Part shown: positions 21,250 to 38,292 of the stretch, piece by piece
Position numbering within the stretch: position 1 is the stretch's first letter
Layout of the letters: each line of letters opens with the position of its first letter
Source of the DNA: a virus
Direction: 5' to 3' (one strand)
Length of the DNA stretch: 52,653 nucleotides
Virus genome (UHGV): UHGV-0083175
Program-made: the position numbers and the translations under genes
Notes under the pieces: model-generated
The model's input: only the letters and a program-made list of their open reading frames with translations
The model's database searches: none
What the model was told of the DNA's origin: nothing

Positions 21250-21320
21250 CGACCGGGGGGGGGGAATCATTCGGGGTAAAAAACGATCGCTCCGGACACC
21301 CCCCCCCCTCTCACCCAGAG
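21250..21320. other. Helper cos region (predicted cosN)
   Basis: G10 (21255-21264) ... CGATCGCTCCGGACACC ... C10 (21299-21308), between the HNH and terS genes. A homologous copy lies at 30051-30115. Confidence 0.5.
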
Positions 21321-21342
21321 AAAAAATTCCCGTTTCAGGTCA

Positions 21343-21462
21343 GTTAACATGTTAACTGGCTTCACGGGCATTTTTGCAGTTTTTATCTTTATTATTCAGT
21401 TTGTTGCGCGGAAAAAATGTTAACAGGCTTTTTCAGCAAATGTTAACCAGGCAGCAGTTAAC
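21343..21462. repeat. Five ATGTTAAC/GTTAACAT repeats (cosB-like TerS-binding sites, predicted)
   Basis: GTTAAC at 21343, 21351, 21419, 21442 and 21457, lying between cos and terS. Confidence 0.55.
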
Positions 21463-21538
21463 ATTTGCGGCATGAGACGCCGGGAAAAATGGGCTGAACC
21501 ATACCCGGCTGAGTGCATTCTGGACCCGGGAGGAGGCT

Positions 21539-22102
21539 GTGCTGACAACGCAAAAACGAAAATTTGCGCTGGCGCTCATGTCCGGGAAAAACAAAACAGC
21601 GTCAGCCATTGCCGCCGGTTATTCGGCGAAGACAGCCAGGGTTAAAGGCTCGCAGCTGGCAAAAGATCCGGAGGTGCTCGCGTTTATAGCCCGTAAGCAG
21701 TGCGAGACGGTAGAGGTGGATGAGGTTCCTGTTTACCGGCAGAAAAAATCAGAGCAGGAGGATAAACCCCGTCGCCGTGAGGCGGCTGCAATACCACAGC
21801 CGGACGAAACAAATCCGGAGATGCCTCTGCCCGTGGTGATATCTCCTGGTATTGAGTATATGGATGACGGTCTTCCCGATCCGGTGAAAGCGATGGGGCG
21901 TCTTCTGGTGGAGAACATTAATACCGACCCCAGGCTGGCGCTGGATGTGGCTTATAAGCTGGCACAGTTCACGCACCACAAAAAAGGGGATGCCGGTAAA
22001 AAATCGGCAAAAGGTGACGCGGCGAAAAAAGCGGCTAACCGTTTTGCGGTGCCACCACCCCCCCGACTGGTGGTGAATAATGATAATGAGGGCAGCGGAT
22101 GA
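21539..22102 (+). CDS. terS: Terminase small subunit (P27 family)
   Basis: N-terminal HTH QKRKFALALMSGKNKTASAIAAGYSAKTARVKGSQLAKDPEV. Its stop overlaps the terL start. Confidence 0.85.
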   Translation: MLTTQKRKFALALMSGKNKTASAIAAGYSAKTARVKGSQLAKDPEVLAFIARKQCETVEVDEVPVYRQKKSEQEDKPRRREAAAIPQPDETNPEMPLPVVISPGIEYMDDGLPDPVKAMGRLLVENINTDPRLALDVAYKLAQFTHHKKGDAGKKSAKGDAAKKAANRFAVPPPPRLVVNNDNEGSG

Positions 22103-22380
22103 TACCTGTGTGGAGCACGGCCTGCCCGGACTGGGCAGAGCGCCTGAAAAAGGGGCTGTCGATTATTCCGGCTCCGATTTACCCGGACCAGGCCGCACAT
22201 GCCCTGGCGATTTTTAAACAACTGCGGATTGTGGATGCACCGGGCAGCCCGACGTTCGGGGAGTCCTGTGCACCGTGGGTGTTTGATCTGGTGGCTGCCC
22301 TGTTTGGCTCCTACGATGCGCAGACCGGTGTACGCCATATAAAGGAAGTGTTCATTCTGATACCGAAAAATAATAGATAA
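22099..22380 (+). pseudogene. terL: Terminase large subunit, 5' fragment (interrupted by the island)
   Basis: The TerL N-terminus ends ..IKEVFILIPKNNR*. The reading frame breaks inside the P-loop at the island junction. Confidence 0.85.
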
Positions 22381-22543: not shown

Positions 22544-23779
22544 ATGCTAATCAAACCGTTAAGCCATGTTGAAGTAAAGAACGCAAAACCAAAGGATAAA
22601 GATTACTCGCTTCATGATGGATTTGGGTTGTTGTTATATGTTTCAAGAAAAGGCTGTAAAACATGGCGTTTCAGGTATCAGCACCCCGACACCAAAAAAA
22701 GACAAACGCTTACCATTGGTCGTTATCCAGATTATTCAATAGCTGAGGCAAGAGAGGAAAGGGATAAAGCAAGGAAATTACTTTCAAGAGGTGTGGATCC
22801 TAATGAGTCTAAGCGCAAGGCAAAATCTGAACGAATTATGCTGAGGTCACAGACCTTTGAAAAAATAACAAATAACTGGTTTGAATTGTATTTAAAGGGA
22901 AGCAGAAGGGAAAATACAGTAAAAACAGTTAGCAGAGTTATTAAAGTTTATATTATTCCTGATTTTGGGGGTTGGACGATTTATGATATACGTGCTGATA
23001 ATGTATTGTCAGTTATTAGAAAATATGACGAAACGCCTGCACAGCAACGAAAAATAGTACAGGTTATGCGTCTTGTTATGGATTATGCCGTGAATGCTGG
23101 AATTGTTCAGTTTAATCCGTTGTCTCGTATTCATAAAGCGCTTCCACCTATGGAAGAGAAAAGCTTTAAGGCGCTGCCCATAGAAAGATTACCCGCTTTT
23201 CTTAATTGGCTTGAGTCAGAAAGTTGTCATCCATCAATAACATATGGTCTTCTTTTTATGATGCTGACAATGACCAGACCTAACGAGGCATTAGGTGCCA
23301 AATGGTCAGAACTGGACGTTGACAGAAAACTATGGACCATTCCAGCAGAGAGGATGAAGGGGAAAAGAGAACACATTATTCCTTTATCTTTACAGGCTGT
23401 TGAAGTGATAATGCGAATGAGAAAAATAAAACAAAGTGAGTATGTTTTTTTTGGTGCTCATTCAGTTGCAAAGGCAATAACGAGAGATGCTATTGTCAGT
23501 AGGGTTAATAAAAGCGAGTTTGCAAAGGAAATGACAGTACACGGATTCAGGTCAATGTGGAGCACATTACTCAATGAAGAGGGATTTAACCCCGATGTTA
23601 TAGAGGCTGCACTTGCACATAAGAGCGGAAATACTGTAAGGGATATTTATAACAGGACGTCATATATTGAACAGCGGGTAATAATGATGCAATGGATAGG
23701 TGATTTTGTCGATTCTGCAAGACGTGGGGTTATTGTTAGGACGCATGGTAAACGCGGTTTAAAATTGGTAAATGAATAA
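22544..23779 (+). CDS. int: Tyrosine integrase (P4-type, N-terminal DUF4102 arm-binding domain)
   Basis: ..KDKDYSLHDGFGLLLYVSRKGCKTWRFRY... N-terminus. The catalytic region has ..HGFRS.. and ..LAH.....VR..Y. Confidence 0.9.
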   Translation: MLIKPLSHVEVKNAKPKDKDYSLHDGFGLLLYVSRKGCKTWRFRYQHPDTKKRQTLTIGRYPDYSIAEAREERDKARKLLSRGVDPNESKRKAKSERIMLRSQTFEKITNNWFELYLKGSRRENTVKTVSRVIKVYIIPDFGGWTIYDIRADNVLSVIRKYDETPAQQRKIVQVMRLVMDYAVNAGIVQFNPLSRIHKALPPMEEKSFKALPIERLPAFLNWLESESCHPSITYGLLFMMLTMTRPNEALGAKWSELDVDRKLWTIPAERMKGKREHIIPLSLQAVEVIMRMRKIKQSEYVFFGAHSVAKAITRDAIVSRVNKSEFAKEMTVHGFRSMWSTLLNEEGFNPDVIEAALAHKSGNTVRDIYNRTSYIEQRVIMMQWIGDFVDSARRGVIVRTHGKRGLKLVNE

Positions 23780-24056: not shown

Positions 24057-24419
24057 TCATGTTTTTTTTGATGCTATGTAAGCAAGAATGCACGGTTCCT
24101 TTGCCAGTTGTGACCCTTTCGATCTGGCTGTTTTCGCACTGTATCCAGCAAGAATAGCGCACTGTGTCTGATTCAGCCCTTTCATCATGTAATCAGCAAA
24201 TTTCTTTTTTTGCTTCGTCAGCTTGTTTGTTTGGTCGTTTTTATCATCGTTTGCGGTAAAAACATTAGATGTGGTCTTAAGCTGATGTTTACAGGCTTCA
24301 ATTACCCACGATGAGAAGTTGGAGTGCGCTTTATCTCTTTCTATGCGTTTTTCAATATCAGCTAATAAGTCAGGCGGGAAGCGGATCCCCTTAAGTATCG
24401 CTTTGCGTGTTTTGTCCAT
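24057..24419 (-). CDS. Fusion of a YlcI-like RHH domain and a TerS-type N-terminal HTH
   Basis: N-terminus ..GIRFPPDLLADIEKRIERDKAHSNFSSWVIEACKHQL (compare 20640-20840). C-terminus KQKKKFADYMMKGLNQTQCAILAGYSAKTARSKGSQLAKEP (compare the terS N-terminus). Confidence 0.7.
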   Translation of the reverse strand: MDKTRKAILKGIRFPPDLLADIEKRIERDKAHSNFSSWVIEACKHQLKTTSNVFTANDDKNDQTNKLTKQKKKFADYMMKGLNQTQCAILAGYSAKTARSKGSQLAKEPCILAYIASKKT

Positions 24420-24535: not shown

Positions 24536-24593
24536 TAGTTAGTGGGGACAGATGACGAGTTGATCAAACCTGCCGGATAACAGGCAAAGAAAA

Positions 24594-24920: not shown

Positions 24921-24977
24921 GATACTGCCCTGTAAAGCAATGCGCCGTAGTACCTCACACCACGGCGCTGATAGTGA

Positions 24978-25157: not shown

Positions 25158-25177
25158 TTCTGGTTCTCCTGATAATC

Positions 25178-25270
25178 GGTGTATTTCAGTATACGCAAAA
25201 AAAAAGATAAAAAAAGTCTTGCGGTGTATTTCACCTGAATGTAGATTTAAAAATGAAGGTGAAATACACC
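25178..25270. promoter_or_regulatory. Divergent promoter/operator region of the island
   Basis: Perfect 13-bp inverted repeat GGTGTATTTCACC (25223-25235) / GGTGAAATACACC (25258-25270), plus a half-site at 25178-25188. A TTGCGG-N17-TAGATT promoter overlaps it. Confidence 0.5.
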
Positions 25271-25343
25271 TAAAACAACAACGCCCCGCAGTGATGGGAA
25301 CACATACGGGGCGTCTAACCAACAACGTAAACGAGGAGCCGTT

Positions 25344-25541
25344 ATGGTTGCCGTAAATCATATACCACACCTTGTACACACACAAACGGCCTTTGTGTGG
25401 CGTTTTCTGGCACTGAGTGCCGGAGAATCTCAAATCATCCACGTAACCGCCTGGACGGAACGCGAAGCGCGTAACCGTTGCCCGTCCGGTTGTGTTGCTG
25501 TATTTGCCGCCCGTATTCGTCAGGAGGTGCGCCATGATTAA
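25344..25541 (+). CDS. Icd-like (cell division inhibitor family) small protein
   Basis: ..FVWRFLALSAGES..IHVTAWTEREARNRCP.GCVAVFAARIR resembles recalled Icd-like proteins of P4/PICI elements. Confidence 0.5.
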   Translation: MVAVNHIPHLVHTQTAFVWRFLALSAGESQIIHVTAWTEREARNRCPSGCVAVFAARIRQEVRHD

Positions 25542-25746
25542 TCTGTCACTTACTGACCTTAACCGCATTCAGTTTCGTGAGAAATTCACAGGGCAGCTAC
25601 TGGTCAATGTGGATAAAGGTCGCGTGGTGTGTAATTACCACTTACCAGATGAAGCAATTGTCGCCACAAGGGAATCATTACAGGAAATCACAAAACGTGC
25701 CGGAATGATTAACACGAATATTCAGGGGATGCTTTATGCACAATAA
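25534..25746 (+). CDS. Hypothetical protein
   Basis: ATG after GGAGGTG, overlapping the upstream stop; 70 aa. Confidence 0.45.
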   Translation: MINLSLTDLNRIQFREKFTGQLLVNVDKGRVVCNYHLPDEAIVATRESLQEITKRAGMINTNIQGMLYAQ

Positions 25747-25975
25747 AACCACACCGGACGCAGCCGCCGAAGCCATCAAAACGCTGATGCACGCGCTGAT
25801 TGATATTTCTGTTATCGCGGACAGGGCACATAAGCACGCCACCAGCGAAACAGAATATGCCGGTGCTTTCGTTCCTCACTCACTGGCTGTCATGCAATTT
25901 AGTGCTGATACGGCGCTGAATGAGGCCAAAGCTATCCTGATTGCTGATTGTGAAAATGGGGGGGGTTATGCGTGA
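25736..25975 (+). CDS. Hypothetical protein
   Basis: 79-aa ORF in a coupled gene string. Confidence 0.45.
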   Translation: MHNKTTPDAAAEAIKTLMHALIDISVIADRAHKHATSETEYAGAFVPHSLAVMQFSADTALNEAKAILIADCENGGGYA

Positions 25976-26201
25976 TGATCGTTTTAATTCCCTGAAACAG
26001 GAATTTTCCGGCGTTCCTGATGATGCGGCTGATGCGCTTTCGTCAATGCCAGAACTTATTAGAGCGGCTTTTTTCTTACTTTCCACGAGAGAATATAAAT
26101 CAACGGGGCTTGATGTACTGAATATCGCCGCCGATTATGCGGAATATGTGGCAGAGGCGCGTTATAGAAGAAAATTTCCTGAGGATGTAAGCCATGCGTG
26201 A
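25968..26201 (+). CDS. Hypothetical protein
   Basis: The ATG at 25968 overlaps the upstream stop; 77 aa. Confidence 0.45.
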   Translation: MRDDRFNSLKQEFSGVPDDAADALSSMPELIRAAFFLLSTREYKSTGLDVLNIAADYAEYVAEARYRRKFPEDVSHA

Positions 26202-26427
26202 TATTTACCACCAAACAATAGACCGCGCATTTCTTGCACTTTCTCACAGTGAAAACATGATGGAAATATTGCGCATATGGCTTGAAACACTTGGCGACAA
26301 TGAACGCGACAAACAAAAATCAAGAATTGCCACGGCATTAATAACGCTTCTTGAGCCTGTAATAATGGAACTGCAAGAAATAGATCTATTGCACGACAGA
26401 TATAAAGAACAGCACATCGGAGAATAA
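26194..26427 (+). CDS. Hypothetical protein
   Basis: 77-aa ORF in a coupled gene string. Confidence 0.45.
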   Translation: MRDIYHQTIDRAFLALSHSENMMEILRIWLETLGDNERDKQKSRIATALITLLEPVIMELQEIDLLHDRYKEQHIGE

Positions 26428-26432
26428 AAATA

Positions 26433-26732
26433 ATGAAACTTAAATATTCTGGCTTAACTGCCAGTGGCAACACTCACCCTAAATTTACGCGCGGTGATAT
26501 TTACCGCGACCAGTACGGCGGCACGGTAATGATTAAGGGCGTGGCGGGACGGTGCGTAACTTACCGCCGTGAAGGTTACGAATATGATTGCGTGATGCCT
26601 GTTTATCAGTTCCGGCGTGATTTTTCTCTGGTACAGACCGCGCCGCATAACGTGCCCACCAGCAACGCCAGGGCACGGGCAAACATCCAGAAGCTGAAAA
26701 CCATGATTAACGGATTCAGGGGTAAAAAATGA
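26433..26732 (+). CDS. Hypothetical protein
   Basis: 99-aa ORF whose stop overlaps the start of the rep gene. Confidence 0.5.
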   Translation: MKLKYSGLTASGNTHPKFTRGDIYRDQYGGTVMIKGVAGRCVTYRREGYEYDCVMPVYQFRRDFSLVQTAPHNVPTSNARARANIQKLKTMINGFRGKK

Positions 26733-28126
26733 AACTGGCACCGAATGTAAAACTGTTACCGAAAGATAAACACACCGAAGCGGTTATTTTTGCGGGTGAT
26801 AATGCTCACTCATTTGCAGAGCACTACATCATTGCACAGGCCAAAAAAGCAGGCGATCCAGTCCCTCCCGTTTACCTGGGGCGTTATCAGTTAAGCGAAC
26901 TGGATAACTTGCAGATTGTTGATAAAGGTCGGTTCAGGGCGAAAGTGATACGTGCCGGAAATATTGACGAAGTGCAGTTGTTAACCATCGCCACGAAACT
27001 GGCAATCGCAGGAGTCCAGGAAGCGCGCCTGTTTTCTGAAAATTTCGAATTGCTGGAGGAATGGAGCGACCAGCTTACACGGCTTAGGGAGACATGGGAA
27101 CGCGGGGAAAGCCTGAGCCACCAGCGAAAAACAAAGCTACCGATGAGCGTTGGATCTGCCGGATACGACACGCAATTAGATTACGTGGTAAAGGGGATTA
27201 TTCCGGCATCGTCGCTATGCAGCATATACGGGGCGAGCGGTTCATATAAATCGTTCCTTGCGGGTTCGTGGGCGTGTCACGTTTCCACGGGCCGCCAGTG
27301 GGGAGGCCGCAGGGTTGCACATGGTGCAGTTCTCTATGTGGTTGGTGAAGGCGGTATTGGTGTTCCGCGTCGTGTAAAAGCCTGGGAGGTTGTGCACGGT
27401 GAGCAGGTGAAAAATCTGTATCTGGTAAACCGTCCCATCTTTCCGGCTGTCCCGCTTGATGTTGATGAAATGGTTATCGCTGCCCGCCAGGTGGAACGGG
27501 AAACCGGTAAACCTGTACGCATGATTATTCTGGATACGCTGGCGCGTTGCTTTGGCGGCAATGATGAAAATGACTCCCGCGACATGGGGGCATTTATCCG
27601 TGGTTGTGACGAGCTTAAACGGCGCACAGGGGCCACTGTGCTGGTGGTTCACCATTCCGGCAAGGATGAAACAAAGGGGGCGCGTGGTTCCAGTGCATTT
27701 CGTGCTTCGCTGGATGCTGAATACCGGATACGCAGGGAGGACGCAGGAAGCGAAGCGCTGGTTATCTCATGCACCAAAATGAAGGACGCGGAGGAACTCA
27801 AAGAGGCTGCCTATGATTTGCGGGTGGTGGAGCTTTTTACCGACGCTGACGGGGAGTTAATCACGTCGCTGGTGGTGGTGGATAAGTCGCGCCCTCCCGT
27901 TGAACTGGAGCGCATCGAAGAGGCAGGCAACAAGACGGAAAACCATACCGCGCTATGGGGGTGTATCCGTTCACGCACACAGAACGGCGACAAGTGCACG
28001 ATCCCGCTGTTACGTGATGACATGAAAAAACTGGGGTACGAAATAAAGCACTTCCGGCGCTGGCTGGGCAAGCTGGAAAAAGACGGCGTTATCTATGTTG
28101 ACGGCGATGATGTAGGGCCACTGTAA
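26729..28126 (+). CDS. Replication protein, RepA/AAA_25-type (RecA-like) helicase, Pri-Rep-like
   Basis: Walker A-like YGASGSYKSF, Walker B-like RMIILDTLARCFGG.DEND, and ..VLVVHHSGKD..KGARGSSA. Iterons follow immediately. Confidence 0.8.
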   Translation: MKLAPNVKLLPKDKHTEAVIFAGDNAHSFAEHYIIAQAKKAGDPVPPVYLGRYQLSELDNLQIVDKGRFRAKVIRAGNIDEVQLLTIATKLAIAGVQEARLFSENFELLEEWSDQLTRLRETWERGESLSHQRKTKLPMSVGSAGYDTQLDYVVKGIIPASSLCSIYGASGSYKSFLAGSWACHVSTGRQWGGRRVAHGAVLYVVGEGGIGVPRRVKAWEVVHGEQVKNLYLVNRPIFPAVPLDVDEMVIAARQVERETGKPVRMIILDTLARCFGGNDENDSRDMGAFIRGCDELKRRTGATVLVVHHSGKDETKGARGSSAFRASLDAEYRIRREDAGSEALVISCTKMKDAEELKEAAYDLRVVELFTDADGELITSLVVVDKSRPPVELERIEEAGNKTENHTALWGCIRSRTQNGDKCTIPLLRDDMKKLGYEIKHFRRWLGKLEKDGVIYVDGDDVGPL

Positions 28127-28328
28127 AAAGTGGGGGGCAAAAGTGGTGGGCATGGGGAATTTAACAAAATTTAAACACGACCCCCCACTTTTTGACCTGT
28201 ATACATCCCAAAAAGTGGGGAGCAAAAAAATACTTATGAAACAGCATGATAAAAATTACAAATCCCACGCCTTTAACGAGATGGGGAATTGTGAAAAGTG
28301 GGGAGTAAAAGTGGGTATAGGTGGGGAG
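28127..28328. repeat. Island replication origin iterons (AAAGTGGGG repeats)
   Basis: At least 6 copies of AAAGTGG(G/T)GG(A)G in both orientations (28127, 28140, 28181 inverted, 28211, 28294, 28308), flanking an AT-rich spacer at 28224-28262. Confidence 0.6.
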
Positions 28329-28580
28329 ATGACACAAAAACGCAGAGACAGAACACAGCCAAAATATAAAGCGTTAGACATGACAGAGCACGCTTTAAAG
28401 GTGGCAATCAGAACGATAGACCGCCACGCGGGGGAAGGATACGCGAAGGAACATCCCGACCTGATAAGCGCATTCATGACCACAGCGGCGGCAAACTTTG
28501 CCACGCTGACAGAACGGGAGATTGCCGAAGCGGAACAGGTAACAACCATCAACGTTAAAACCGGAGAGTTGGAATCATGA
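28329..28580 (+). CDS. Hypothetical protein
   Basis: The likely start is the ATG at 28329, after the iterons. The track ORF start (28143) would read through the origin. Confidence 0.4.
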   Translation: MTQKRRDRTQPKYKALDMTEHALKVAIRTIDRHAGEGYAKEHPDLISAFMTTAAANFATLTEREIAEAEQVTTINVKTGELES

Positions 28581-28882
28581 GCGAACCAAAATTTGGTGAA
28601 AAACTTTACAAGCACAACGGACGGATCACGATTCTGCAAATAAGCGCAGCTACACCAGGCTGGTGGGTTGAAACAGACGAAGGATCCTCACCCGTGGCAT
28701 CATGGGCGCTTTGTGCGCTTAGTTACCCTGACCGCGATGTGTATCAGGATATTCTGCCTGTGATATCCACTGACAAAGGCATGAAACCCGTAGACATCAA
28801 AAACATGGGTTTTCAGTGCGTAATGCTCACTGAAAAAATGATGGAAGAGATGAAAAAGAACAACGCCGGATCGCTTCACTGA
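28577..28882 (+). CDS. Hypothetical protein
   Basis: 101-aa ORF, coupled to the upstream gene. Confidence 0.5.
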   Translation: MSEPKFGEKLYKHNGRITILQISAATPGWWVETDEGSSPVASWALCALSYPDRDVYQDILPVISTDKGMKPVDIKNMGFQCVMLTEKMMEEMKKNNAGSLH

Positions 28883-28891
28883 GGTGGCAAT

Positions 28892-29290
28892 ATGACAGCA
28901 CAAATTGCAGCTTACGGGCGGCTGGTGGACGACCCGCAGGTAAAACAGACCAGCAAGGGCACACCGATGACGCTGGCGCGTATGGCGGTATCTTTGCCAT
29001 GCAGCCAGGCACAGGACGGACAGGCGACGTTATGGTTATCGGTCATCGCATTTGGCAAACAGGCCGACTTCCTGGCTAAACATCAAAAAGGAGATGTTGC
29101 CAGCGTATCCGGCACGATGCAGGTAAGCCAGTGGACAGGCCAGAACGGCGAAACGCGGCAGGGCTGGCAGGTTATCGCAGACAGCGTAATCAGTGCCCGA
29201 GGCGGGAACAGACGCAAAACCACAGGCACACAGGGTAATCAGCCACCAGCGGGAGGCGATGACCCTTACGGTGATGGTATTCCGTTCTGA
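28892..29290 (+). CDS. ssb: Single-stranded DNA-binding protein
   Basis: OB-fold pattern (..GRLVDDPQVKQTSKGTPMTLARMAV...W..V.AFGKQA..L...KGD...V.G......W), a Gly/Pro-rich tail and an acidic tip DGIPF. Confidence 0.85.
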   Translation: MTAQIAAYGRLVDDPQVKQTSKGTPMTLARMAVSLPCSQAQDGQATLWLSVIAFGKQADFLAKHQKGDVASVSGTMQVSQWTGQNGETRQGWQVIADSVISARGGNRRKTTGTQGNQPPAGGDDPYGDGIPF

Positions 29291-29300
29291 GGGGGTGAGG

Positions 29301-29573
29301 ATGGTACATGACCGCATAGCGGAGGAACTCGAGGCGAAAGGATTTTACCGGAGGGCGGCGGCGCGATGGGGTGAAGTCATGCAGCTGGTGGAGACAGACA
29401 AGGAACGGTATCAGGTTACGATGCGACGGCTGGAATGTTCCAGGAAGGCACAGAAGCCACCGGAGCCGCCGGATAACTTCGGAGACCTGAGAAAGGCAGT
29501 CGATCGCACTTATGCTGAAATGGGTATAGATGGTGCAGGCGATGAAGTATGGCGTAATTACCCAGACAGCTAA
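29301..29573 (+). CDS. PerC/Pch-family transcriptional activator-like protein
   Basis: MVHDRIAEELEAKGFYRRAAARWGEVM.. resembles the recalled PerC family core (LE..G.YRRAA.RW.EV). Confidence 0.6.
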   Translation: MVHDRIAEELEAKGFYRRAAARWGEVMQLVETDKERYQVTMRRLECSRKAQKPPEPPDNFGDLRKAVDRTYAEMGIDGAGDEVWRNYPDS

Positions 29574-29578
29574 GCACA

Positions 29579-29602
29579 TAGCCGGAGCAATCCGGCTTTT
29601 TT
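29579..29602 (+). terminator. Intrinsic terminator
   Basis: AGCCGGA-gcaa-TCCGGCT followed by T7. Confidence 0.75.
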
Positions 29603-29691
29603 TCGATCTCACATATCTTTAAAAATGGTTGATTGATTATAATCTATCGAAAATAATGATTATGAGATGATAAGCATCAGGAGGAAACAAA

Positions 29692-29886
29692 GTGGAACAG
29701 ATAAAGCAAAGCGCTACCGTGATGATTGATCACGAGATCCTAAACGAGCTTAAAAAACTTCAATTCGATGTTATTCGCCGGATGAATGAAGCTGGTATAT
29801 ACGGCAGAGCCGCCACGCCAACAGTAGGCCATCTTGCTCGCGTGCTGTTACGCGAACGCCTGGGCATTGCAACAGGTGAGGAATAA
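29692..29886 (+). CDS. Hypothetical small protein (RHH-like N-terminus)
   Basis: GTG start 8 nt after AGGAGG; 64 aa. Confidence 0.45.
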   Translation: MEQIKQSATVMIDHEILNELKKLQFDVIRRMNEAGIYGRAATPTVGHLARVLLRERLGIATGEE

Positions 29887-29888
29887 CA

Positions 29889-30050
29889 ATGGTTATCACA
29901 GAACGCGAGGCAAGCATCATTAAAGCCATTGGCGAGGAAACAAGAGACACGATAGCGCCATTAATGGAAAAGATCGCAGAGCTTGAGACACGAATAAACA
30001 AGCTGAGTGATGAAGTTGAAGGCCTGATCTCGTTACTCGGTGAGCAATGA
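29889..30050 (+). CDS. 53-aa protein resembling the N-terminus of the helper repeat protein (below the track cutoff)
   Basis: MVITEREASIIKAIGEE.. compared with the helper protein at 36907, MNERELSIIRALGEE... It has a coiled-coil tail. Confidence 0.45.
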   Translation: MVITEREASIIKAIGEETRDTIAPLMEKIAELETRINKLSDEVEGLISLLGEQ

Positions 30051-30115
30051 CAGGGGGGGGGGAGTGTTCCGGCCGGAAAGTCGATCGCCCTGGACACCGC
30101 CCCCCGTCTCATTCG
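30051..30115. other. Island cos-like site
   Basis: G10 (30053-30062) ... CGATCGCCCTGGACACC-G-CCCCCC-GTCTCA, homologous to helper 21255-21312. Confidence 0.5.
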
Positions 30116-30138
30116 TAGAAAATTTTGCTTTTCAAAAA

Positions 30139-30412
30139 AGTTACACGAAAAGTTACACCCCCTCAAAACGAGGTTTTTGCATGGCATTAACGACCAAAAA
30201 AAAGCGGTTTGCTGATGCGTTATCAAGGGGCGCAAATCCCACGGAAGCCGCTATACATGCGGGATACAGCGAAAAGACCGCAAGGGTTAAAGGCTGGCAG
30301 CTATCCAACGATCCTGAGGTGAAAAAGTATCTTAAGGTTGTCACTCCTGATGTAACTTTTCAGGTTACAAAACCGAAAAAAGTTACAAAGAAAGTTACCG
30401 AAAAAGTTACAC
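30139..30412. repeat. (A/G)GTTAC(A/C) repeat array spanning the terS-like 5' region
   Basis: Copies at 30139, 30151, ~30351 (inverted), 30363, 30381, 30393 and 30405. The last three are spaced 12 bp apart. Confidence 0.55.
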
Positions 30413-30669
30413 CGGAACGGGCATCAATCAGCACCATAGAACGGATGGACAACGGCTTGCCCGACCCTATCAAAGCTATGGGCAGGATACTGGCTGACAA
30501 CATAGACACAGATCCAAAACTGGCTTTAGATGCCGCGTTTAAGCTGGCCCAGTTCACCCACCGCAAGATCGGCAGCATTGGGAAAAAAGAGGTTAAAAAA
30601 CTCAATGCCGCGAATGTCTCCTCAAATCGGTTCCCCATCCCTAAGCCACCAACAGGCTTAAAACACTGA
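30181..30669 (+). CDS. Island-encoded terminase small subunit paralogue
   Basis: The HTH KKKRFADALSRGANPTEAAIHAGYSEKTARVKGWQL and C-terminus MDNGLPDPIKAMGRILADNIDTDPKLALDAAFKLAQFTH closely parallel the helper TerS. Confidence 0.8.
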   Translation: MALTTKKKRFADALSRGANPTEAAIHAGYSEKTARVKGWQLSNDPEVKKYLKVVTPDVTFQVTKPKKVTKKVTEKVTPERASISTIERMDNGLPDPIKAMGRILADNIDTDPKLALDAAFKLAQFTHRKIGSIGKKEVKKLNAANVSSNRFPIPKPPTGLKH

Positions 30670-30680
30670 GGTAGCGAACT

Positions 30681-30842
30681 ATGAACGAATACATCACAGA
30701 CCCTATTGATGTACTCACGGAAATCATGAACGACAAGCAGCAGCCAACCGAAATACGGTTACAGGCTGCCGCTGTTCTGATGCCATATTTTCACGAAACT
30801 CTAACCCCATGTTACCAGGAGGAAGAAGATGATGATTTCTAA
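30681..30842 (+). CDS. 53-aa hypothetical protein (below the track cutoff)
   Basis: MNEYITDPIDVLTEIMNDKQQPTEIRLQAAAVLMPYFHE.. with an acidic tail. It overlaps the next start. Confidence 0.45.
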   Translation: MNEYITDPIDVLTEIMNDKQQPTEIRLQAAAVLMPYFHETLTPCYQEEEDDDF

Positions 30843-31755
30843 AAACATGAAAGGCGTGTCGGCAGTTCGCGCCGCCAGCGTGCTTACATCGTGTAAATTC
30901 AGCCATGCAGACGCAATTGAAATGACGAAAAAAAATGATCCGGCAGTATCGAAATTTCTTGAAAAATCCATTGTTGCCGGAATGACTACGGATAATATGC
31001 CGTCGCTGGTGGCAGAGCCGATAGTAAGAGAGCTTGGCGAGTATATTTTTTCGCAGTCTGTACCAGGCAAGCTAATCAGCAGCGCGCTGAATCTTCCGTT
31101 TGGCGCAAAATTGCAGTCAATATCAGGCAAGGGTAGTAAATGGCTTAAAGAAGCCGAAGAAATCCCTGTCAAAGAGGGAGAAGTAAACGAAAGTGCGCTA
31201 AAACTGTGCAAACTTGGCGCTATTGTGATGCTGAATAACGAGCTAATCAAATTTAGCACCCCTGGTACCAATTCAGCGATCAGAGACTTGATCACATCGG
31301 AATCGGTGAAAGAAATAGATAAAAAATTTCTTTCCAGTGACCAGGAGTTGGCGGGCGTATCCCCTGAGGGCGTGCTTAATGGTGCTGATGAGGCCGAAAA
31401 CTTCATAGAGCTTTTCAAAAAGCACATAGCGAACGGTAACACGCTTGCCACGTCGTCGCTAATCTTGCCCGTAGAAAACGCCTTACAGCTTACTGATGCT
31501 GAGTTCTGGCAGATAGAGCTTTTGAGAATACCGGTAATTGTGAGCGAACAGGCGGATCGCATGATGCTGATAGACGCTCAAAAGCTGATTATTAACGTTG
31601 AAGCCACGGTTATAACCCCAACTGATGAGGCGGTAATAAAAACCGAATCAGGGACGGTTAGCCTTTTCCAGAATGACGCTACAGCGTTCAGGGCAATCAC
31701 CTATTGCGGATGGCAAAAACTCGATAAGGCCGTCACCGTTCTGGCGCAATCTTGA
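30829..31755 (+). CDS. HK97-fold major capsid protein paralogue (no protease/scaffold part)
   Basis: Several blocks align by eye to the C-terminal half of 33397-35334, for example ..LCKLGAIVMLNNELIKFSTPGTNSAIRDLI.. against ..AKVSAIAVLTEELIRFSSPAADALVRNAL... Confidence 0.7.
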   Translation: MMISKNMKGVSAVRAASVLTSCKFSHADAIEMTKKNDPAVSKFLEKSIVAGMTTDNMPSLVAEPIVRELGEYIFSQSVPGKLISSALNLPFGAKLQSISGKGSKWLKEAEEIPVKEGEVNESALKLCKLGAIVMLNNELIKFSTPGTNSAIRDLITSESVKEIDKKFLSSDQELAGVSPEGVLNGADEAENFIELFKKHIANGNTLATSSLILPVENALQLTDAEFWQIELLRIPVIVSEQADRMMLIDAQKLIINVEATVITPTDEAVIKTESGTVSLFQNDATAFRAITYCGWQKLDKAVTVLAQS

Positions 31756-31932
31756 TGTAGTGCGCCGCATTACTGGTTATGTGAATGCGGCGCATAGGGC
31801 CTACGAAAAACAAAATTAGTTTACGTTATCTTATGTAACCATATTTAACGGAGAAGACTAAAACGCGGACTATTTAGTGTCAGTGCGTGAGCCTAACAGC
31901 ATAATAAACAAGATATTAAGATAGCTTTACGC

Positions 31933-33333
31933 ATACCCAAAAAAAACAGCAAGTCCACGCTGGCTGCCGGGATCATGATGACGGCGCTGTTACTGAACTG
32001 GCGGCAGGCGGCGGGCTACACCATTCTGGCCCCGACCGTGGAGGTGGCGGCTAATGCCTTCAATCCTGCCAGGGATATGGTACGACGGGACGATGATCTG
32101 GATGACCTCTGTCAGGTGCAGACACATATCCGGACCATCACCCATCGGGTGACGGACACCACCCTGAAGGTGGTGGCAGCCGATCCGAATACGGTGTCCG
32201 GTATCAAGTCCGTGGGGACACTGATTGATGAACTGTGGCTGTTTGGCAAGCAGTACAAAGCGGAGGACATGTTACGTGAAGCCATAGGTGGCCTTGCCTC
32301 CCGCCCGGAAGGGTTTGTGGTGTATACGACCACCCAGTCGAATGAACCGCCCGCCGGGGTGTTCAGACAGAAACTGCAGTACGCCCGGGATGTGCGCGAC
32401 GGCAAAATTCATGATCCGCACTTTCTGCCGGTGATATTTGAGCATCCGCCGGAGATGGTGGAGCGCGGTGAGCACCTGCTGATGGAAAACCTCGCCATGG
32501 TCAATCCGAATCTCGGTTATTCGGTGGATGAGGCCTTTCTGTACCGGGAGTATCGTAAAGCCCGGGAAGCCGGTGAAGATACATTCCGGGGGTTCATGTC
32601 AAAACACGCCAATGTGGAAATTGGTCTTGCCCTGCGTTCTGACCGCTGGGCGGGTGCGGATTTCTGGGAGCAGCAGGGCAGGCGCGTCAGCCTGGACGAT
32701 ATTCTGCAGCGCGCTGATGTGGTGACGGTGGGGATTGACGGCGGGGGCCTGGATGATCTGCTGGGAATGTACGTGATTGGCCGTGACAGGGAAACCCGCG
32801 AATGGCTGGGCTGGGGCCATGCCTGGGCGCATGAAACCGCGGTGGTCAGACGGAAGAGTGAGGCATCCCGTTTTCAGGATTTTGTGGCCTGTGGAGACAT
32901 GACGATTGTCCGTCGGGTCGGGGATGACACGGCGGAAGTGGCGGAGTATGTGCGTCGTATTCATGAGGCTGAGTTACTGGATCATATCGGTATTGACCCG
33001 TCAGGTGTGGGGCAGATTCTGGATTCACTGGCGGAAGCCGGGATCCCCGACGGAATTGTTGTGGGGATAAGCCAGGGCTGGAAGCTGGGCGGGGCCATCA
33101 AAACCACCGAGCGCAAACTGGCTGAGGGAGTGCTGGTGCATGGTGGTCAGCCACTGATGGCCTGGTGCGTTGGCAATGCCCGGGTGGAGCCTAAAGGTAA
33201 CGCCATCCTTATTACCAAACAGGCCAGCGGACGGGGGAAAATTGACCCGCTGATGGCGCTGTTCAATGCGGTATCCCTGATATCCCTGAATCCGGAGCCC
33301 AAAAAGAAAGAATATGCGGTTTTTTTCATATAA
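31933..33333 (+). pseudogene. terL: Terminase large subunit, 3' fragment
   Basis: The frame is open from 31933 (IPKKNSKSTLAAGIMMTALLLNW...). The track ORF begins at the internal ATG 31975. It continues 22099-22380. Confidence 0.85.
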
Positions 33334-33396: not shown

Positions 33397-35334
33397 GTGA
33401 CTCTTAAACGGGCCTGCTCCCTGCTGACGGTGAAATCCTTCAGTGAGGATGAGCGGGTGATCACCGGGATTGCGTCAACGCCTTCTCCGGATCGGGATGG
33501 TGACATCCTGGAGCCGGAGGGCGCGGAGTTTGGCAGTGCGATCCCGTTTCTCTGGCAGCATGACCATTCCCGCCCGGTGGGGCAGTGTACGGTGCGCCGG
33601 GTCAGCGAAGGGCTGGAAATCACGGCAACACTGGTGAAGCCCGTGCCGGATATGCCGTCGCAACTGGCTGCCCGGCTGGATGAGGTCTGGGCGGCCATTA
33701 AGACCGGGCTGGTCAGGGGGCTGTCCGTGGGCTTCCGTCCCCATGAATACACCTTTCTGGACGGAGGTGGACTGCATTTTCTGCGCTGGGAGCTGATGGA
33801 GGTGTCTGCCGTTACCGTGCCCGCGAATGCGGAATGCACCATCCGGACCATTAAATCTTACGACCGCCCGTTTTCTGCCGCGTCCGGCAACCGGAAACCG
33901 GTGGTGAAAATCGCATCTTCTGCCGGCGCTGCGGCACAGTCAACAACCGTTTTTCATAAGGAAAAGACCATAATGAATATTGGCGAACAGATTAAAAGTT
34001 TTGAAAACAAGCGTGCAGCGCTGGCAGCCTCCCTTGAGGAGGTCATGACCAAAGCCGCAGAGGAAGGGCGCACGCTGGATGTGGAGGAGGAGGAGCATTA
34101 CGACAACACCGCAGCGGAAATCCGTCAGGTGGATGCGCACCTGAAGCGCCTGCGTGAACTGGAAGCCGGTAAGGCCGCCACGGCGCAGCCAGTGAAACAG
34201 GCCGGTAACGGGAATGTGGCCGCGGTGGCTTCTGCGCCGGTGATCCGTGTGGAGCAGAAACTGGATAAGGGGATTGGTTTCGCACGTTTTGCCAAATCGC
34301 TGGCTGCGGCTAAAGGTGTCCGCTCTGAAGCCCTGGAAGTGGCCCGTCGTCAGTATCCGGATGACAGTCGTCTGCATCATGTCCTGAAATCGGCAGTGGG
34401 CGCGGGGACCACCACGGATCCGCAGTGGGCAGGCAGCCTGTCTGAATATCAGGAATACGCACAGGACTTTATTGATTACCTGCGTCCTCAGACCATTATC
34501 GGGCGATTTGGTCAGGGCGGGATCCCTGCACTTCGTCAGGTGCCGTTCAATATCCGTGTGCACGCCCAGGTGTCCGGCGGTGCTGCCGGCTGGGTGGGTG
34601 AGGGTAAGGCAAAACCCCTGACGAAGTTTGATTTTGAATCCATCACCTTCAGTCATGCGAAGGTGTCGGCCATTGCGGTACTGACGGAAGAATTGATCCG
34701 TTTTTCCAGTCCGGCTGCTGATGCACTGGTCCGTAATGCGCTGGCGGAAGCGGTGGTGGCGCGTCTGGATACAGACTTTGTGGACCCGAAAAAAGCGGCG
34801 GTGGCAGATGTCTCCCCGGCGTCCATCACCCATGATGTGAAGGGCACGGCATCAAGCGGTAACCCGGATGCGGATGCAGAGGCTGCGTTTGGACAGTTTG
34901 TGGCAGCAAACCTGCAGCCCACCGGTGCGGTCTGGCTGATGTCCAGCACAAATGCCCTGGCACTGTCCATGCGTAAAAATGCGCTGGGTCAGAAAGAATA
35001 CCCGGACATGACCCTGCTGGGTGGCTCCTTCCAGGGGCTGCCGGTGATTGTCTCTCAGTACGTGGGTGACCAGCTGGTGCTGGTGAATGCCCCGGATATT
35101 TATCTGGCGGATGACGGCGGCGTGGCAGTGGATATGTCCCGCGAGGCATCACTGGAAATGCAGTCTGAGCCGACCGGCGACAGTACCACGCCGTCGCCGG
35201 TGGAGCTGGTTTCCATGTTCCAGACAGGCAGCGTGGCCATCCGTGCGGAGCGCTGGATCAACTGGCGTCGTCGCCGTACCGCGGCGGTGGCGGTGATCAC
35301 CGGAGTGAACTATGGCAGTGCGTCCGGCGGCTGA
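33397..35334 (+). CDS. Prohead protease - major capsid protein fusion (HK97 type)
   Basis: The N-terminus is an HK97-family protease (..GIASTPSPDRDGDILEP.GA.F....P.LWQHD...PVG), followed by a coiled-coil linker and a C-terminal HK97-like capsid domain. Confidence 0.85.
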   Translation: MTLKRACSLLTVKSFSEDERVITGIASTPSPDRDGDILEPEGAEFGSAIPFLWQHDHSRPVGQCTVRRVSEGLEITATLVKPVPDMPSQLAARLDEVWAAIKTGLVRGLSVGFRPHEYTFLDGGGLHFLRWELMEVSAVTVPANAECTIRTIKSYDRPFSAASGNRKPVVKIASSAGAAAQSTTVFHKEKTIMNIGEQIKSFENKRAALAASLEEVMTKAAEEGRTLDVEEEEHYDNTAAEIRQVDAHLKRLRELEAGKAATAQPVKQAGNGNVAAVASAPVIRVEQKLDKGIGFARFAKSLAAAKGVRSEALEVARRQYPDDSRLHHVLKSAVGAGTTTDPQWAGSLSEYQEYAQDFIDYLRPQTIIGRFGQGGIPALRQVPFNIRVHAQVSGGAAGWVGEGKAKPLTKFDFESITFSHAKVSAIAVLTEELIRFSSPAADALVRNALAEAVVARLDTDFVDPKKAAVADVSPASITHDVKGTASSGNPDADAEAAFGQFVAANLQPTGAVWLMSSTNALALSMRKNALGQKEYPDMTLLGGSFQGLPVIVSQYVGDQLVLVNAPDIYLADDGGVAVDMSREASLEMQSEPTGDSTTPSPVELVSMFQTGSVAIRAERWINWRRRRTAAVAVITGVNYGSASGG

Positions 35335-35378: not shown

Positions 35379-35600
35379 ATGGCAAAGATCCGATATCTGC
35401 AGGGCACGCATGATGCCCGGGCCGGGGATATCCGTGATGTGGCACAGCCGTGTGCGGAGGTGCTGGTTCGCCTGGGAAAGGCGGAGTACATCACGGTGCG
35501 ACGTCCGGCAGGTCAGAAAAAGAAACGTGATGCGGAGCATGGCGAATGTGGAACCTTTTACGGCGAACCCGAAAAAACCAGAAATCAGGACGTGACGTAA
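35379..35600 (+). CDS. Hypothetical small head-module protein
   Basis: 73-aa ORF whose 3' end overlaps the portal gene start. Confidence 0.4.
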   Translation: MAKIRYLQGTHDARAGDIRDVAQPCAEVLVRLGKAEYITVRRPAGQKKKRDAEHGECGTFYGEPEKTRNQDVT

Positions 35601-36910
35601 GAGAGGCGGGCTGGACCAGCCTGTTTCAGGCGGTGGCTGAGCCCTTTTCCGGCGCCTGGCAGCAGGGCGTGAAAGCCGATCCTGAAGCCGTCCTCTCCTT
35701 TCATGCGGTGTTTGCATGTATTTCGCTGATATCCCAGGATATCGCCAAAATGCGGCTGCGTCTTATGCAGACGGATGCGCAGGGGATACGCAGGGAAACG
35801 CGCCGGGGGGATATTGCCCGCCTCTGTCGTCGTCCCAACGCCCAGCAGAACCGCATCCAGTTTTTTGAACTGTGGCTGAACGCCAAACTGCGTCACGGCA
35901 ATACGGTGGTGCTGAAAATCCGTAATGCCCGGGGGCAGATCAAAGAACTGCGTATTCTGGACTGGAACCGGGTTGAACCTCTGGTGGCGGATGACGGCGA
36001 GGTGTTCTACCGCATCACGCCGGACCGGAACTGCGGGATCACTGAGGCGGTGACGGTGCCTGCCCGGGAAGTGATCCACGACCGGTTTAACTGTTTTTTT
36101 CATCCGCTTATAGGGTTGCCGCCGGTGTATGCCGCCGGGCTGGCGGCCACGCAGGGGCATCATATTCAGGAAAATTCGACGTCTTTTTTCAGAAATGGCG
36201 GCAGGCCGTCCGGGGTGATTGAGATCCCCGGCAGTATTACGGAAGAAAATGCGAAAAAACTGAAGAGCAACTGGGACAGCGGGTATACAGGCGAAAATGC
36301 GGGGAAAACGGCCATTCTGAGCAACGGGGCAAAATACAACCCCACGACGTTTTCACCGGTGGATTCGCAGACGGTGGAACAACTGAAGATGACCGCTGAA
36401 ATTGTCTGTTCGGTGTTCCGTGTCCCGGCCTACAAGATTGGCGTGGGACAACCGCCTTCCAGTGACAACGTGGAGGCGCTGGAGCAGCAGTATTATTCTC
36501 AGTGCCTGCAGACGCTGATTGAGTCCATTGAACTGTTACTGGATGAGGCGCTGGAAACGGGGGAAAACGAGAGTACGGAATTTGATGTCACCACGCTGCT
36601 GAGAATGGACAGTGAGCGGCGCATGAAAACGCTGGGGGATGCGGTGAAAAATACGCTTCTCACGCCCAATGAGGCCCGTAAACGGGAGAACCTGCCGCCC
36701 CTGGCCGGCGGTGATGCACTGTATCTTCAGCAGCAGAACTACAGTCTGGAAGCGTTGTCCCGCCGTGATGCCCGTGAAGATCCGTTCGCGTCGTCCGGTA
36801 AAACAGCTTCCGTGCCTCAGGCGGTCGTTGCCTCTGACGGTAATAAGGCAATCACTGAAACAGAGCATGATGCGGTGAAGGCGATGTTCAGGGGGATTCT
36901 GAAAAAATGA
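35546..36910 (+). CDS. Portal protein (HK97 family)
   Basis: ..VLSFHAVFACISLISQDIAKMRLRL.. and downstream portal-typical blocks; 454 aa. Confidence 0.85.
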   Translation: MWNLLRRTRKNQKSGRDVREAGWTSLFQAVAEPFSGAWQQGVKADPEAVLSFHAVFACISLISQDIAKMRLRLMQTDAQGIRRETRRGDIARLCRRPNAQQNRIQFFELWLNAKLRHGNTVVLKIRNARGQIKELRILDWNRVEPLVADDGEVFYRITPDRNCGITEAVTVPAREVIHDRFNCFFHPLIGLPPVYAAGLAATQGHHIQENSTSFFRNGGRPSGVIEIPGSITEENAKKLKSNWDSGYTGENAGKTAILSNGAKYNPTTFSPVDSQTVEQLKMTAEIVCSVFRVPAYKIGVGQPPSSDNVEALEQQYYSQCLQTLIESIELLLDEALETGENESTEFDVTTLLRMDSERRMKTLGDAVKNTLLTPNEARKRENLPPLAGGDALYLQQQNYSLEALSRRDAREDPFASSGKTASVPQAVVASDGNKAITETEHDAVKAMFRGILKK

Positions 36911-38292
36911 ATGAACGTGAACTGTCCATTATCCGTGCGCTGGGTGAAGAATTTTCCGCAGTGCTGGCGGATTTACAGCGCACATTTGAGGGGAAAATAG
37001 CCGCGCAGGCACAAACGTTTGAAGAAAAACTGGCTTCCCTGTCTGTGGTATTACAGAAGTGCGTGACGGGCGATGATGTGCGTCCGATGCTTGAGCAGAT
37101 GGTGAAGGAGGCGGTAAGCCATATCCCTGTTCCGCGCGACGGTCGTGACTATGATCCGGAAGTACTGCAGAAGGCGGTGAATGATGCTGTCGGGAAAATA
37201 CCGGTACCGGCGAACGGTAAAAGTATTACTCCCGATAGTGTGCGTCCGATGATTGAGCAGATGGTGAAGGAGGCTGTAAGCCATATTCCTGTTCCGCGCG
37301 ACGGTCGTGACTATGATCCCGATGTTCTGCAGAAGGCGGTGAATGATGCGGTCGCAAATATTCCGCAGCCGGCGGACGGTAAAAGTCTCACCCCGGATGA
37401 TGTGCGTCCGATGCTTGAACAGATGGTGAAAGAGGCAGTGAGCCATATTCCTGTTCCGCGTGATGGTCGTGACTACGATCCGGAAGTACTGCAGAAGGCG
37501 GTGAATGATGCAGTCGCAAATATTCCGCAGCCGGCGGACGGTAAAAGTCTCACCCCGGATGATGTGTGTCCGATGCTTGAGCAGATGGTGAAGGAGGCAG
37601 TGAGCCATATTCCTGTTCCGCGTGATGGTCGTGACTACGATCCGGAAGTACTGCAGAAGGCGGTGAATGATGCAGTCGCAAATATTCCGCAGCCGGCAGA
37701 CGGTAAAAGTATCACCCCGGATGATGTGCGTCCGATGCTTGAGCAGATGGTGAAGGAGGCGGTAAGCCATATTCCTGTTCCGCGTGATGGTCGTGACTAT
37801 GATCCGGATGTTCTGCAGAAGGCGGTGAATGATGCGGTGAGTGCCCTGCCGGCTCCGCAGGACGGGCGTGATGCCACTGCACTGGAAATACTCCCTGCCA
37901 TTGACGATCAAAAATCCTTTCCCCGGGGCACGTATGCCACACACCAGGGCGGACTCTGGCGGGCGTATGAAAAAACGCACGGGATGCGGGGATGGGAATG
38001 CCTGGTTGACGGGGTGGCGGATATTGACGTCAGCATGACGGGTGAACGGTTGTTCTCTGTGGTGGTCCGGCAGAGCAGTGGCCAGCGTACGGAAAAAACA
38101 TTTTCCCTGCCGGTGATGCTCTACCGCGGTGTGTTCAGAGCCGGTGAAACCTACCACCCCGGCGATACGGTGACGTGGGGGGGCTCGCTGTGGCACTGCA
38201 ACAGTATGACCGGTGATAAACCCGGAGAAGCTCATTCATCAGGCTGGGCCCTGGCTGCAAAACGTGGGCGGGATGCAGGAGGCGGAAAATGA
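36907..38292 (+). CDS. Repeat-containing virion protein (possible head decoration/fibre) with a C-terminal carbohydrate-binding-like motif
   Basis: Five 54-aa repeats. The C-terminus YHPGDTVTWGGSLWHCNSMTGDKPGE...GW resembles a CBM5/12-type motif. Confidence 0.65.
   Translation: MNERELSIIRALGEEFSAVLADLQRTFEGKIAAQAQTFEEKLASLSVVLQKCVTGDDVRPMLEQMVKEAVSHIPVPRDGRDYDPEVLQKAVNDAVGKIPVPANGKSITPDSVRPMIEQMVKEAVSHIPVPRDGRDYDPDVLQKAVNDAVANIPQPADGKSLTPDDVRPMLEQMVKEAVSHIPVPRDGRDYDPEVLQKAVNDAVANIPQPADGKSLTPDDVCPMLEQMVKEAVSHIPVPRDGRDYDPEVLQKAVNDAVANIPQPADGKSITPDDVRPMLEQMVKEAVSHIPVPRDGRDYDPDVLQKAVNDAVSALPAPQDGRDATALEILPAIDDQKSFPRGTYATHQGGLWRAYEKTHGMRGWECLVDGVADIDVSMTGERLFSVVVRQSSGQRTEKTFSLPVMLYRGVFRAGETYHPGDTVTWGGSLWHCNSMTGDKPGEAHSSGWALAAKRGRDAGGGK
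37078..37887 (+). repeat. 5 x 162-bp in-frame tandem repeat
   Basis: Units start at 37078, 37240, 37402, 37564 and 37726. Each encodes VRPMLEQMVKEAVSHIPVPRDGRDYDPEVLQKAVNDAVANIPQPADGKSLTPDD. Confidence 0.9.

Follow-up and report, generated by a model that had tools for sequence, protein, structure and literature searches.

A satellite island within the terL gene of a lambdoid helper prophage, with its own cos core, its own small terminase and a scaffold-less capsid homologue

The packaging strategies described in the satellite literature comprise copying of the helper cohesive-end site (cos), a pac-type small terminase (TerS) of the satellite together with the protein Ppi, the Rpp protein, and full capsid-forming modules. 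A cos-type satellite TerS that depends on the large terminase (TerL) and the HNH protein of its helper is not among the strategies in that literature. Satellites integrated within helper late genes, including terminase genes, were published in 2023 (Tommasini, Mageeney and Williams; PMC10111431). Here we describe a 9,573-bp island in the virus genome UHGV-0083175, whose 52,653 nt are referred to below as the window. The island is a satellite of the phage-inducible chromosomal island (PICI) type and lies within terL of an HK97-like lambdoid helper prophage with HNH-dependent cos packaging. The element type is already known, but the combination of an own cos, an own TerS and a stripped capsid gene within helper terL is previously undescribed.

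Among staphylococcal pathogenicity islands (SaPIs), SaPIbov5, whose helper is phi12, is likewise a satellite of an HNH-dependent cos phage, with a helper-type cos, a single HK97-fold capsid homologue and no terL, HNH or portal gene. It differs in lacking TerS and using that of the helper, whereas the island has its own TerS and its own repeats. A further difference is the delta domain of Ccm, the SaPIbov5 capsid homologue, which demonstrably sits at the pentamers of the shell, whereas the island homologue, a putative shell component, has no scaffold part. The pac-type SaPIs, SaPI1 and SaPIbov1, do encode a TerS, which works with helper TerL at a satellite-specific site, and a small protein, Ppi, that blocks helper TerS. 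They package by the headful (pac) mechanism, however, with no shared nicking site and no need for HNH; a Ppi-like role could be hypothesised for either of two small island open reading frames (ORFs), ORF 30681-30842 and ORF 24057-24419.

The E. coli satellites show a similar mixture of likeness and difference. EcCICFT073 and other Rpp-type PICIs have the same Gram-negative order of int, alpA, replication and late genes, with a cos in the late zone and a capsid homologue. In these elements, however, Rpp reprogrammes the helper TerS, terS is absent and the helpers are of the lambda/phi80 type, whereas the island brings a full TerS and targets HK97-like HNH/cos phages. The PICIs of strains IHE3034 and 18098 (Fillol-Salom 2018) are E. 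coli PICIs with a TerS, but unlike the island were reported without a helper, cos site or mechanism. Capsid-forming PICIs such as EcCIEDL933 carry packaging and capsid genes of the HK97/HNH-cos lineage, terS and a capsid gene included. Beyond these genes they have HNH, TerL, portal, protease and connectors of their own, and the tails alone come from the helper, whereas the island has only terS and the capsid homologue; no protease or head-tail connector gene of capsid-forming PICIs was found in the scanned island ORFs. An original prediction, made from the sequence without database searches, had placed this gene set between classical cos PICIs and capsid-forming PICIs, which is a fair description.

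The window is a lambdoid prophage, and its head and packaging genes match those of the Pankowvirus group (phages 2851, 1717 and many Stx1a and Stx2c phages). The helper genes run in the order HNH (20882-21247), cos region, terS, terL, protease-scaffold-capsid fusion, portal (35546-36910) and a 461-aa repeat protein (Table 1). Helper terL is split after 93 codons by the island, whose borders are imperfect 17-bp repeats and which sits at the codons for IPKKNSKST, co-oriented with terL. The att sequences were compared across 11 sister loci. In-silico excision, joining the two parts across the shared AAAAA, gave a 553-aa TerL that agrees at every position (0 mismatches) with the uninterrupted protein of E. 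coli 2013C-3181, so the island has inserted cleanly and in a reversible manner.

Scans against Pfam and PHROGs found an integrase, an AlpA-like protein (weak, E 6e-4), DUF4222, an AAA_25 RepA-like helicase, SSB and PerC in the island, followed by the packaging module. The layout is that of a Gram-negative PICI: int and the alpA-like gene at the left end, then an own replication module, mostly unidirectional, with terS and the capsid homologue as the sole late genes in 9,573 bp. No HNH, terL, portal, tail or lysis genes were found among the island ORFs scanned, which for the first four agrees with the original prediction. The best explanation of 29692-31755 is the late (packaging) module of the satellite. 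The view of this segment as the packaging module of a satellite thus held up: it comprises a cos core of the helper type, an island TerS whose C-terminal core is helper-like and a scaffold-less capsid homologue. Rfam families, including P4-type immunity RNAs, were not detected in 20500-32500. Directly before the first module gene, 29580-29597 resembles a terminator, with a hairpin and a T-run, and 29629-29657 resembles a promoter, although scan counts for such features were not above those of shuffled sequence. The packaging module may form its own transcription unit.

We found that the island carries the helper cos core, including the cohesive-end stretch. Island and helper cores form a direct repeat (30049-30122 against 21251-21324; 74% over 74 nt, ungapped), in line with the claim that the island site repeats the helper cos architecture. 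When this pair was aligned with two more islands and two more helper phages, the columns common to all were the G-run, CCGG, CGATC, GGACACC, the C-run, TCTCA and AGAAAA. The same core was present in every copy examined, that is, in 12/12 further island copies and 10/10 further helper copies. In the related phage Lys8385Vzw, PhageTerm assigned cohesive ends of the 3' type, with CGCCCCCCCT as the cos sequence (PMC7946995). Its GenBank record starts with CTCACGC and ends with CGCCCCCCCT, i.e. inside the shared core. The island equivalent, CGCCCCCCGT, whose position is predicted from the Lys8385Vzw data, is identical to that of phage 2851. When the cos cores were folded as single-stranded DNA, the G-run and C-run could pair, but z-scores of -0.7 and -0.95 were not above shuffles. 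In the unexcised composite prophage the two co-oriented cos cores (21284 and 30082) are 8,798 bp apart, and cutting both would yield aberrant packaging substrates.

Next to its cos core the island encodes a small terminase. The protein is 46% identical to helper TerS (BLASTP, E 2e-42) and matches both PF03592 (41.6 bits against a cut-off of 26.1) and phrog_641 (2.3e-43 across residues 1-158). Its nearest phage relative among 50,697 phage records, at 47% identity, is exactly the TerS of the helper-type Stx/PPompW phages. Compared by domain, island and helper TerS share 30/50 residues (60%) of the helix-turn-helix (HTH) and 32/44 (73%) of the C-terminal core, whilst the linker is unrelated. The original prediction had rightly seen that the island ORF parallels helper TerS, that the C-terminal half is almost collinear and that the adjacent DNA repeats differ. 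Its statement that the N-terminal HTH differs was overstated, as the differences lie in a few residues of the recognition helix and in the linker.

The repeats beside the two cores are not alike. The window holds ten AAGTTAC sites against 3.6 expected, and six of them fall within 273 bp (30138-30410); four of these six lie inside island terS, where they encode a KKVT peptide repeat. The helper has five GTTAAC sites in 120 bp (21343-21462). Comparison with other helper loci gave three TerS/repeat pairings on one common cos core (Table 1; helper cos regions e.g. L095 5380-5680). All three TerS types keep the C-terminal core GLPDP.KAMGR...LAQFTH. Near-identical islands were found in helpers of both repeat types, and therefore island specificity does not track helper TerS. 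TerS specificity probably rests on a few recognition-helix residues together with the repeats. Such a pattern would be expected if TerL and HNH nick at the core, TerS binds to the repeats, and the conserved C-terminal part of TerS serves oligomerisation and TerL contact.

The second late gene of the island encodes a stand-alone capsid homologue. It aligned to residues 291-625 of the helper fusion protein (22% identity, E 1e-20) and matched Phage_capsid PF05065 at 28.8 bits (cut-off 24.2); its TIGR01554 score of 26.5 bits was just below the cut-off of 27.5. As a single sequence it had no match among solved structures. The family profile alone matched, to the solved capsid proteins 9d9w (6.5e-12) and 6b0x of 80alpha (1.3e-4), which places the protein among HK97-fold capsids. 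The alignment to the capsid half of the helper fusion, without its protease/scaffold half, was thus predicted correctly, but close paralogy is not borne out: identity to the helper capsid is 22-23%, as against 25-27% to capsids from phages of Burkholderia, Moraxella and Salmonella. The protein belongs to an old stand-alone family. In an exhaustive representative search the members of this distinct family were some 310-330 aa long, and 8 representative clusters scored below 1e-30. Recent capture from the helper of the window was considered and rejected, because identity to the helper proteins is no more than 46% for TerS and 22% for the capsid homologue.

A distant relative of the gene pair was found in a Logan assembly (L101 1003-2561), where a capsid homologue of 326 aa (26% identical) immediately follows a TerS-like gene of 162 aa. 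That locus also holds a DUF3987 primase-like gene and a weak HTH_17 match. Relatives of the stand-alone capsid homologue (25.6% identity) are also carried by three records of 12.9-13.4 kb named 'Ralstonia phage' (ON170149.1, ON170171.1 and ON170322.1); these short records may be satellites deposited as phages.

The module is conserved well beyond this locus. All five module ORFs were intact in 12 other copies, with ratios of nonsynonymous to synonymous substitution (dN/dS) of 0.1-0.28 where divergence suffices. Among 5,426 complete E. coli genomes, 220 carry the module at 95-100% conservation and 1,252 have the helper type. Most module-bearing islands have other integrases and occupy chromosomal sites, e.g. 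tRNA-Pro. Taken together, the intact ORFs, the dN/dS values, the distant identities of TerS and capsid homologue and the L101 gene pair indicate that the terS-capsid pair is an old satellite module, neither a recent capture from the helper nor a decaying remnant.

Table 1. Features of the island and its helper in the window, with the three TerS/repeat pairings.
Feature	Position	Strand	Evidence and remarks
Island cos core	30049..30122	+	G10 30053-62, CGATCGC 30082-88, GGACAC 30092-97, predicted 10-nt 3' cohesive end CGCCCCCCGT 30098-30107, then CTCA
Helper cos region	21251..21463	+	core 21251-21324, cohesive-end equivalent 21300-21309, GTTAAC repeats 21343-21462
Island small terminase (TerS)	30181..30669	+	Terminase_2 PF03592, phrog_641, BLASTP to helper TerS
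Helper TerS	21539..22102	+	Pfam/PHROG, BLASTP
Island AAGTTAC repeats, candidate cosB / TerS-binding sites	30138, 30150, 30352(-), 30380, 30392, 30404 (30138..30410, +)		12-bp phasing
Pairing, helper type A (window)			TerS AKTARVKGSQLAK, recognition-helix region SAKTARVKGSQLAK; repeat GTTAAC, 187-aa TerS
Pairing, helper type B (L094, L095, L098)			TerS EKSARCKGSQLAK, recognition-helix region SEKSARCKGSQLAK; repeat TGTTTAYA, 185-aa TerS
Pairing, island			TerS EKTARVKGWQLSN, recognition-helix region SEKTARVKGWQLSN; repeat AAGTTAC
Stand-alone capsid homologue of the HK97 family, 308 aa, lacking protease and scaffold parts	30829..31755	+	Pfam, PHROG, pairwise alignment to helper capsid, family profile
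Helper protease-scaffold-capsid fusion	33397..35334	+	Pfam/PHROG
attL core ATACCGAAAAATAATAG	22360..22376	+	codons ~88-93 of helper terL; island left end; flank matches to intact terL overlap 17 bp
attR core ATACCCAAAAAAAACAG	31933..31949	+	island right end; terL resumes here
Helper terL, N-terminal fragment	22099..22380	+	93 codons, stop within island sequence; phrog_7622 E 1.2e-65
Helper terL, C-terminal part	31944..33333	+	gives 553-aa TerL with the N-terminal part by in-silico excision
Island tyrosine integrase, Arm-DNA-bind_3 type	22544..23779	+	Pfam
64-aa ORF, first module gene	29692..29886	+	ribbon-helix-helix-like by eye only; intact in all sister loci; dN/dS 0.12-0.14
53-aa coiled-coil-like ORF	29889..30050	+	resembles first ~23 aa of helper portal C-terminal extension; conserved, dN/dS ~0.15 on few changes
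53-aa ORF, TerS C-terminal core-like with acidic tail; candidate TerS or TerL decoy	30681..30842	+	phrog_641 positions 88-126, E 7e-7; dN/dS ~0.2
120-aa protein, YlcI/DUF3950-like N-domain fused to helper-type TerS HTH; candidate regulator or cosB decoy	24057..24419	-	Pfam and PHROG
Helper portal C-terminal extension protein	36907..38292	+	coiled-coil start, 4.7 x 54-aa repeats, globular end

We consider it reasonably probable that island TerS redirects the helper TerL and HNH proteins onto the shared nicking core by a swap of TerS. On induction the island would excise and terL would be re-created. Island TerS would then assemble on the AAGTTAC repeats, and its conserved C-terminal part would recruit helper TerL and helper HNH, so that the shared core is cut and island DNA is packaged. 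The cos specificity would thus be changed through the swapped TerS and not through an Rpp-type adaptor. In the least certain step, the scaffold-less capsid homologue may co-assemble with the helper protease-scaffold-capsid protein and alter shell geometry as Ccm of SaPIbov5 does. Precedent for such a capsid homologue comes from Ccm and the phi12 capsid protein, which are 24% identical yet co-assemble (PMC8569155). Capsid resizing is nevertheless the weaker, secondary claim. The two 53-aa ORFs of the module, one resembling the TerS C-terminal core and the other the portal extension, may interfere with helper TerS/TerL or with the working of the portal. TerL docking and the redirection of capsid size or poisoning of helper capsids, all raised in the original prediction, are inferred. 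Support for the redirection of terminase comes from the shared core, the three TerS/repeat pairings, the presence of near-identical islands in both helper types, the old terS-capsid pairing, the lack of TerL, HNH and portal in the island, the helper-type identity of the nearest phage TerS, the conservation of the ORFs and the exact restoration of terL.

Several points weigh against this view. Packaging, TerS-TerL contact and TerS-repeat binding are inferred from sequence, and we assume which domain of the island TerS family contacts TerL. Deletion of c1499, the capsid homologue of EcCICFT073, left transfer and interference unchanged (PMC6092414), and the two TerS-encoding E. coli PICIs assayed in 2018 transferred poorly (Fillol-Salom 2018). 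The island capsid homologue, unlike Ccm, has no delta/scaffold domain and is no nearer to the helper capsid than to capsids of unrelated phages. Word-indexed homologue searches returned 3, 2 and 12 proteins, insufficient for a deep alignment, and an AlphaFold2 model of the capsid homologue from a 12-row alignment was unusable (pLDDT 43). The island is also one sixth of the helper genome of about 57 kb, a ratio that matches no simple smaller T number.

That ratio bears on a possible, if somewhat unlikely, variant in which terminase is redirected in the same way but shells are not resized. Island concatemers would then be packed into helper heads of full size, and the capsid gene would be either non-essential or otherwise used. 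Six island lengths (6 x 9,573 = 57.4 kb) come close to the phage 2851 genome (57,248 bp), the capsids that package EcCICFT073 are of phage size and its capsid homologue is dispensable (PMC6092414, PMC6739421), and the island capsid protein has no scaffold domain. This variant has to contend with a stand-alone capsid family that is old, under purifying selection and always beside terS, which suggests a packaging-linked function. An extended reading, which we regard as doubtful, has the island control helper terminase both in cis, by splitting terL until excision, and in trans, by a three-part TerS toolkit, with the scaffold-less capsid protein resizing shells in addition. In such a toolkit the full TerS with its new DNA specificity would take over TerL and HNH, the HTH of ORF 24057-24419 would occupy helper cosB or sense helper TerS at an island operator, and ORF 30681-30842 would poison TerS rings or block TerL docking. 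If true, this combined cis and trans control would be a new hijack strategy for HNH/cos phages and a second independent origin of helper-embedded satellites.

It is also quite unlikely, in our judgement, that the module is mainly an interference (anti-phage) device, in which TerS, TerS fragments and the capsid homologue poison the packaging and assembly of helper or competitor without efficient transfer. Three TerS-derived products, two of them partial domains, and the poor transfer of the TerS-encoding E. coli PICIs of 2018 would suit such a device. The island has, however, what a packaging substrate needs, namely an entire cos core, phased repeats and TerS in full length, and there was no match to known defence models, PADLOC returning none for island ORFs of no assigned family. 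Still harder to sustain, and in our view very improbable, is an inert leftover, in which late genes taken from a prophage or from a capsid-forming PICI would be in decay. Late-gene capture by PICIs is documented (PMC10111431) and the island has just 2 of the approximately 8 genes of the capsid-forming module. Against decay stand ORFs that are intact in every copy with dN/dS of 0.1-0.28, and a module present at 95% identity or above in 220 genomes; the identities to helper TerS (46%) and capsid (22%) show that capture was not recent, and a very distant relative has this gene pair too. Redirection of helper terminase by the island TerS remains our preferred reading.

The remaining module ORFs are small. 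The 64-aa ORF that opens the module had no family match in Pfam, PHROGs, NCBIfam or PADLOC. The following 53-aa ORF (29889-30050) had been described as a mimic of a helper virion-protein N-terminus. A likeness was found, with 12/23 identities to the start of the 36907 product and E 5e-5 in pairwise comparison, and 36907 was the best non-self match in the window. Its window-wide E value was however marginal, at 0.007-0.016 against 989 six-frame ORFs, and in phage 2851 the segment is internal, as portal and 36907-type protein form a single 859-aa ORF. We regard the likeness as probably real but weak. In the window, a 162-nt tandem repeat (37072-37835; 4.7 copies, 92% matches) encodes the 54-aa units of the portal-extension protein. 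At the portal junction (36880-36915) the window has GGGGG, one base shorter, and the genes are split with an ATGA overlap; judged from translations, a sixth G would restore the phage 2851 frame. This G-run may be a real mutation, a homopolymer sequencing error or a slippery site.

Two further ORFs had been missed by the original prediction. ORF 30681-30842 is linked to TerS by the PHROG profile only, pairwise BLAST and phmmer against TerS returning nothing. ORF 24057-24419 has an HTH that is 66% identical to the helper TerS N-terminus versus 53% to island TerS, with a recognition helix almost that of the helper. Several TGTTAA[AC] motifs, resembling the helper GTTAAC, lie in the divergent intergenic region upstream of it (ORF and region together, 24057-24560). 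The protein could act as a repressor that derives from the DNA-binding domain of a terminase. In most sister islands just a 43-aa fragment is called at this position, and ORF 24057-24419 is therefore not a core part of the module. No Rpp match for the small island ORFs was returned by the libraries searched, although it is uncertain whether those libraries contain an Rpp model.

The relation of the island to published helper-embedded PICIs was assessed through its integrase and att sites. Like the 11capE helper-embedded PICIs, the island lies inside a helper late gene and in its orientation (terminase genes are included among their sites), and excision restores the host gene, here terL. The structural definition of a helper-embedded PICI thus applies. 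The island integrase nevertheless falls outside the 11capE clade, being only 25% identical to an 11capE integrase versus 37% to the integrase of a tRNA-Pro PICI. The doubled TGTATTGC motif is also absent from the attP arms, where just single sites with 1-2 mismatches were found, and 11capE has no terS whereas the island has one. The island att sequence was not found in the text-format supplementary files of PMC10111431, one of which is incomplete.

An identical integrase protein was found in 69 index blocks. Among the 10 contexts listed, 9 were in terL, in at least 3 terL alleles, and terL is therefore the preferred target. The remaining listed context is a chromosomal island copy between yobH and mgrB (L089 9751-19482), whose attB has only CCGAAAAA in common with attP; this location is probably a secondary site. 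Among species-representative genomes the integrase had no close relatives (best 38%), which is uninformative on target sites. The terL-embedded arrangement occurred in 1 of 5,426 complete E. coli genomes. The terL-embedded copies mean that helper-embedding arose also in an integrase lineage outside the published clade.

The helper type provides the head/packaging module of many Stx1a and Stx2c phages and of related prophages of pathogenic E. coli. The scanned ORFs of the window showed no stx gene. The window has an AraC-family regulator upstream of a NanS-p-like esterase gene, and an OmpC-like porin gene among the tail genes (11799-12524, 14116-16053 and 45058-46212). The AraC-family regulator presumably occupies the usual stx position of Stx phages. 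If island TerS does redirect helper terminase, this would provide a candidate helper and mechanism for the TerS-encoding PICIs of 2018, provided that those carry the module of the island. It would also be a fourth route to cos capture, beside cos copying, Rpp and a full capsid/terminase set, and would offer a natural three-way set of TerS proteins and repeats on one nicking core, useful for learning how small terminases read DNA. Finally, terL-embedded satellites may reduce the yield of toxin-converting phages.

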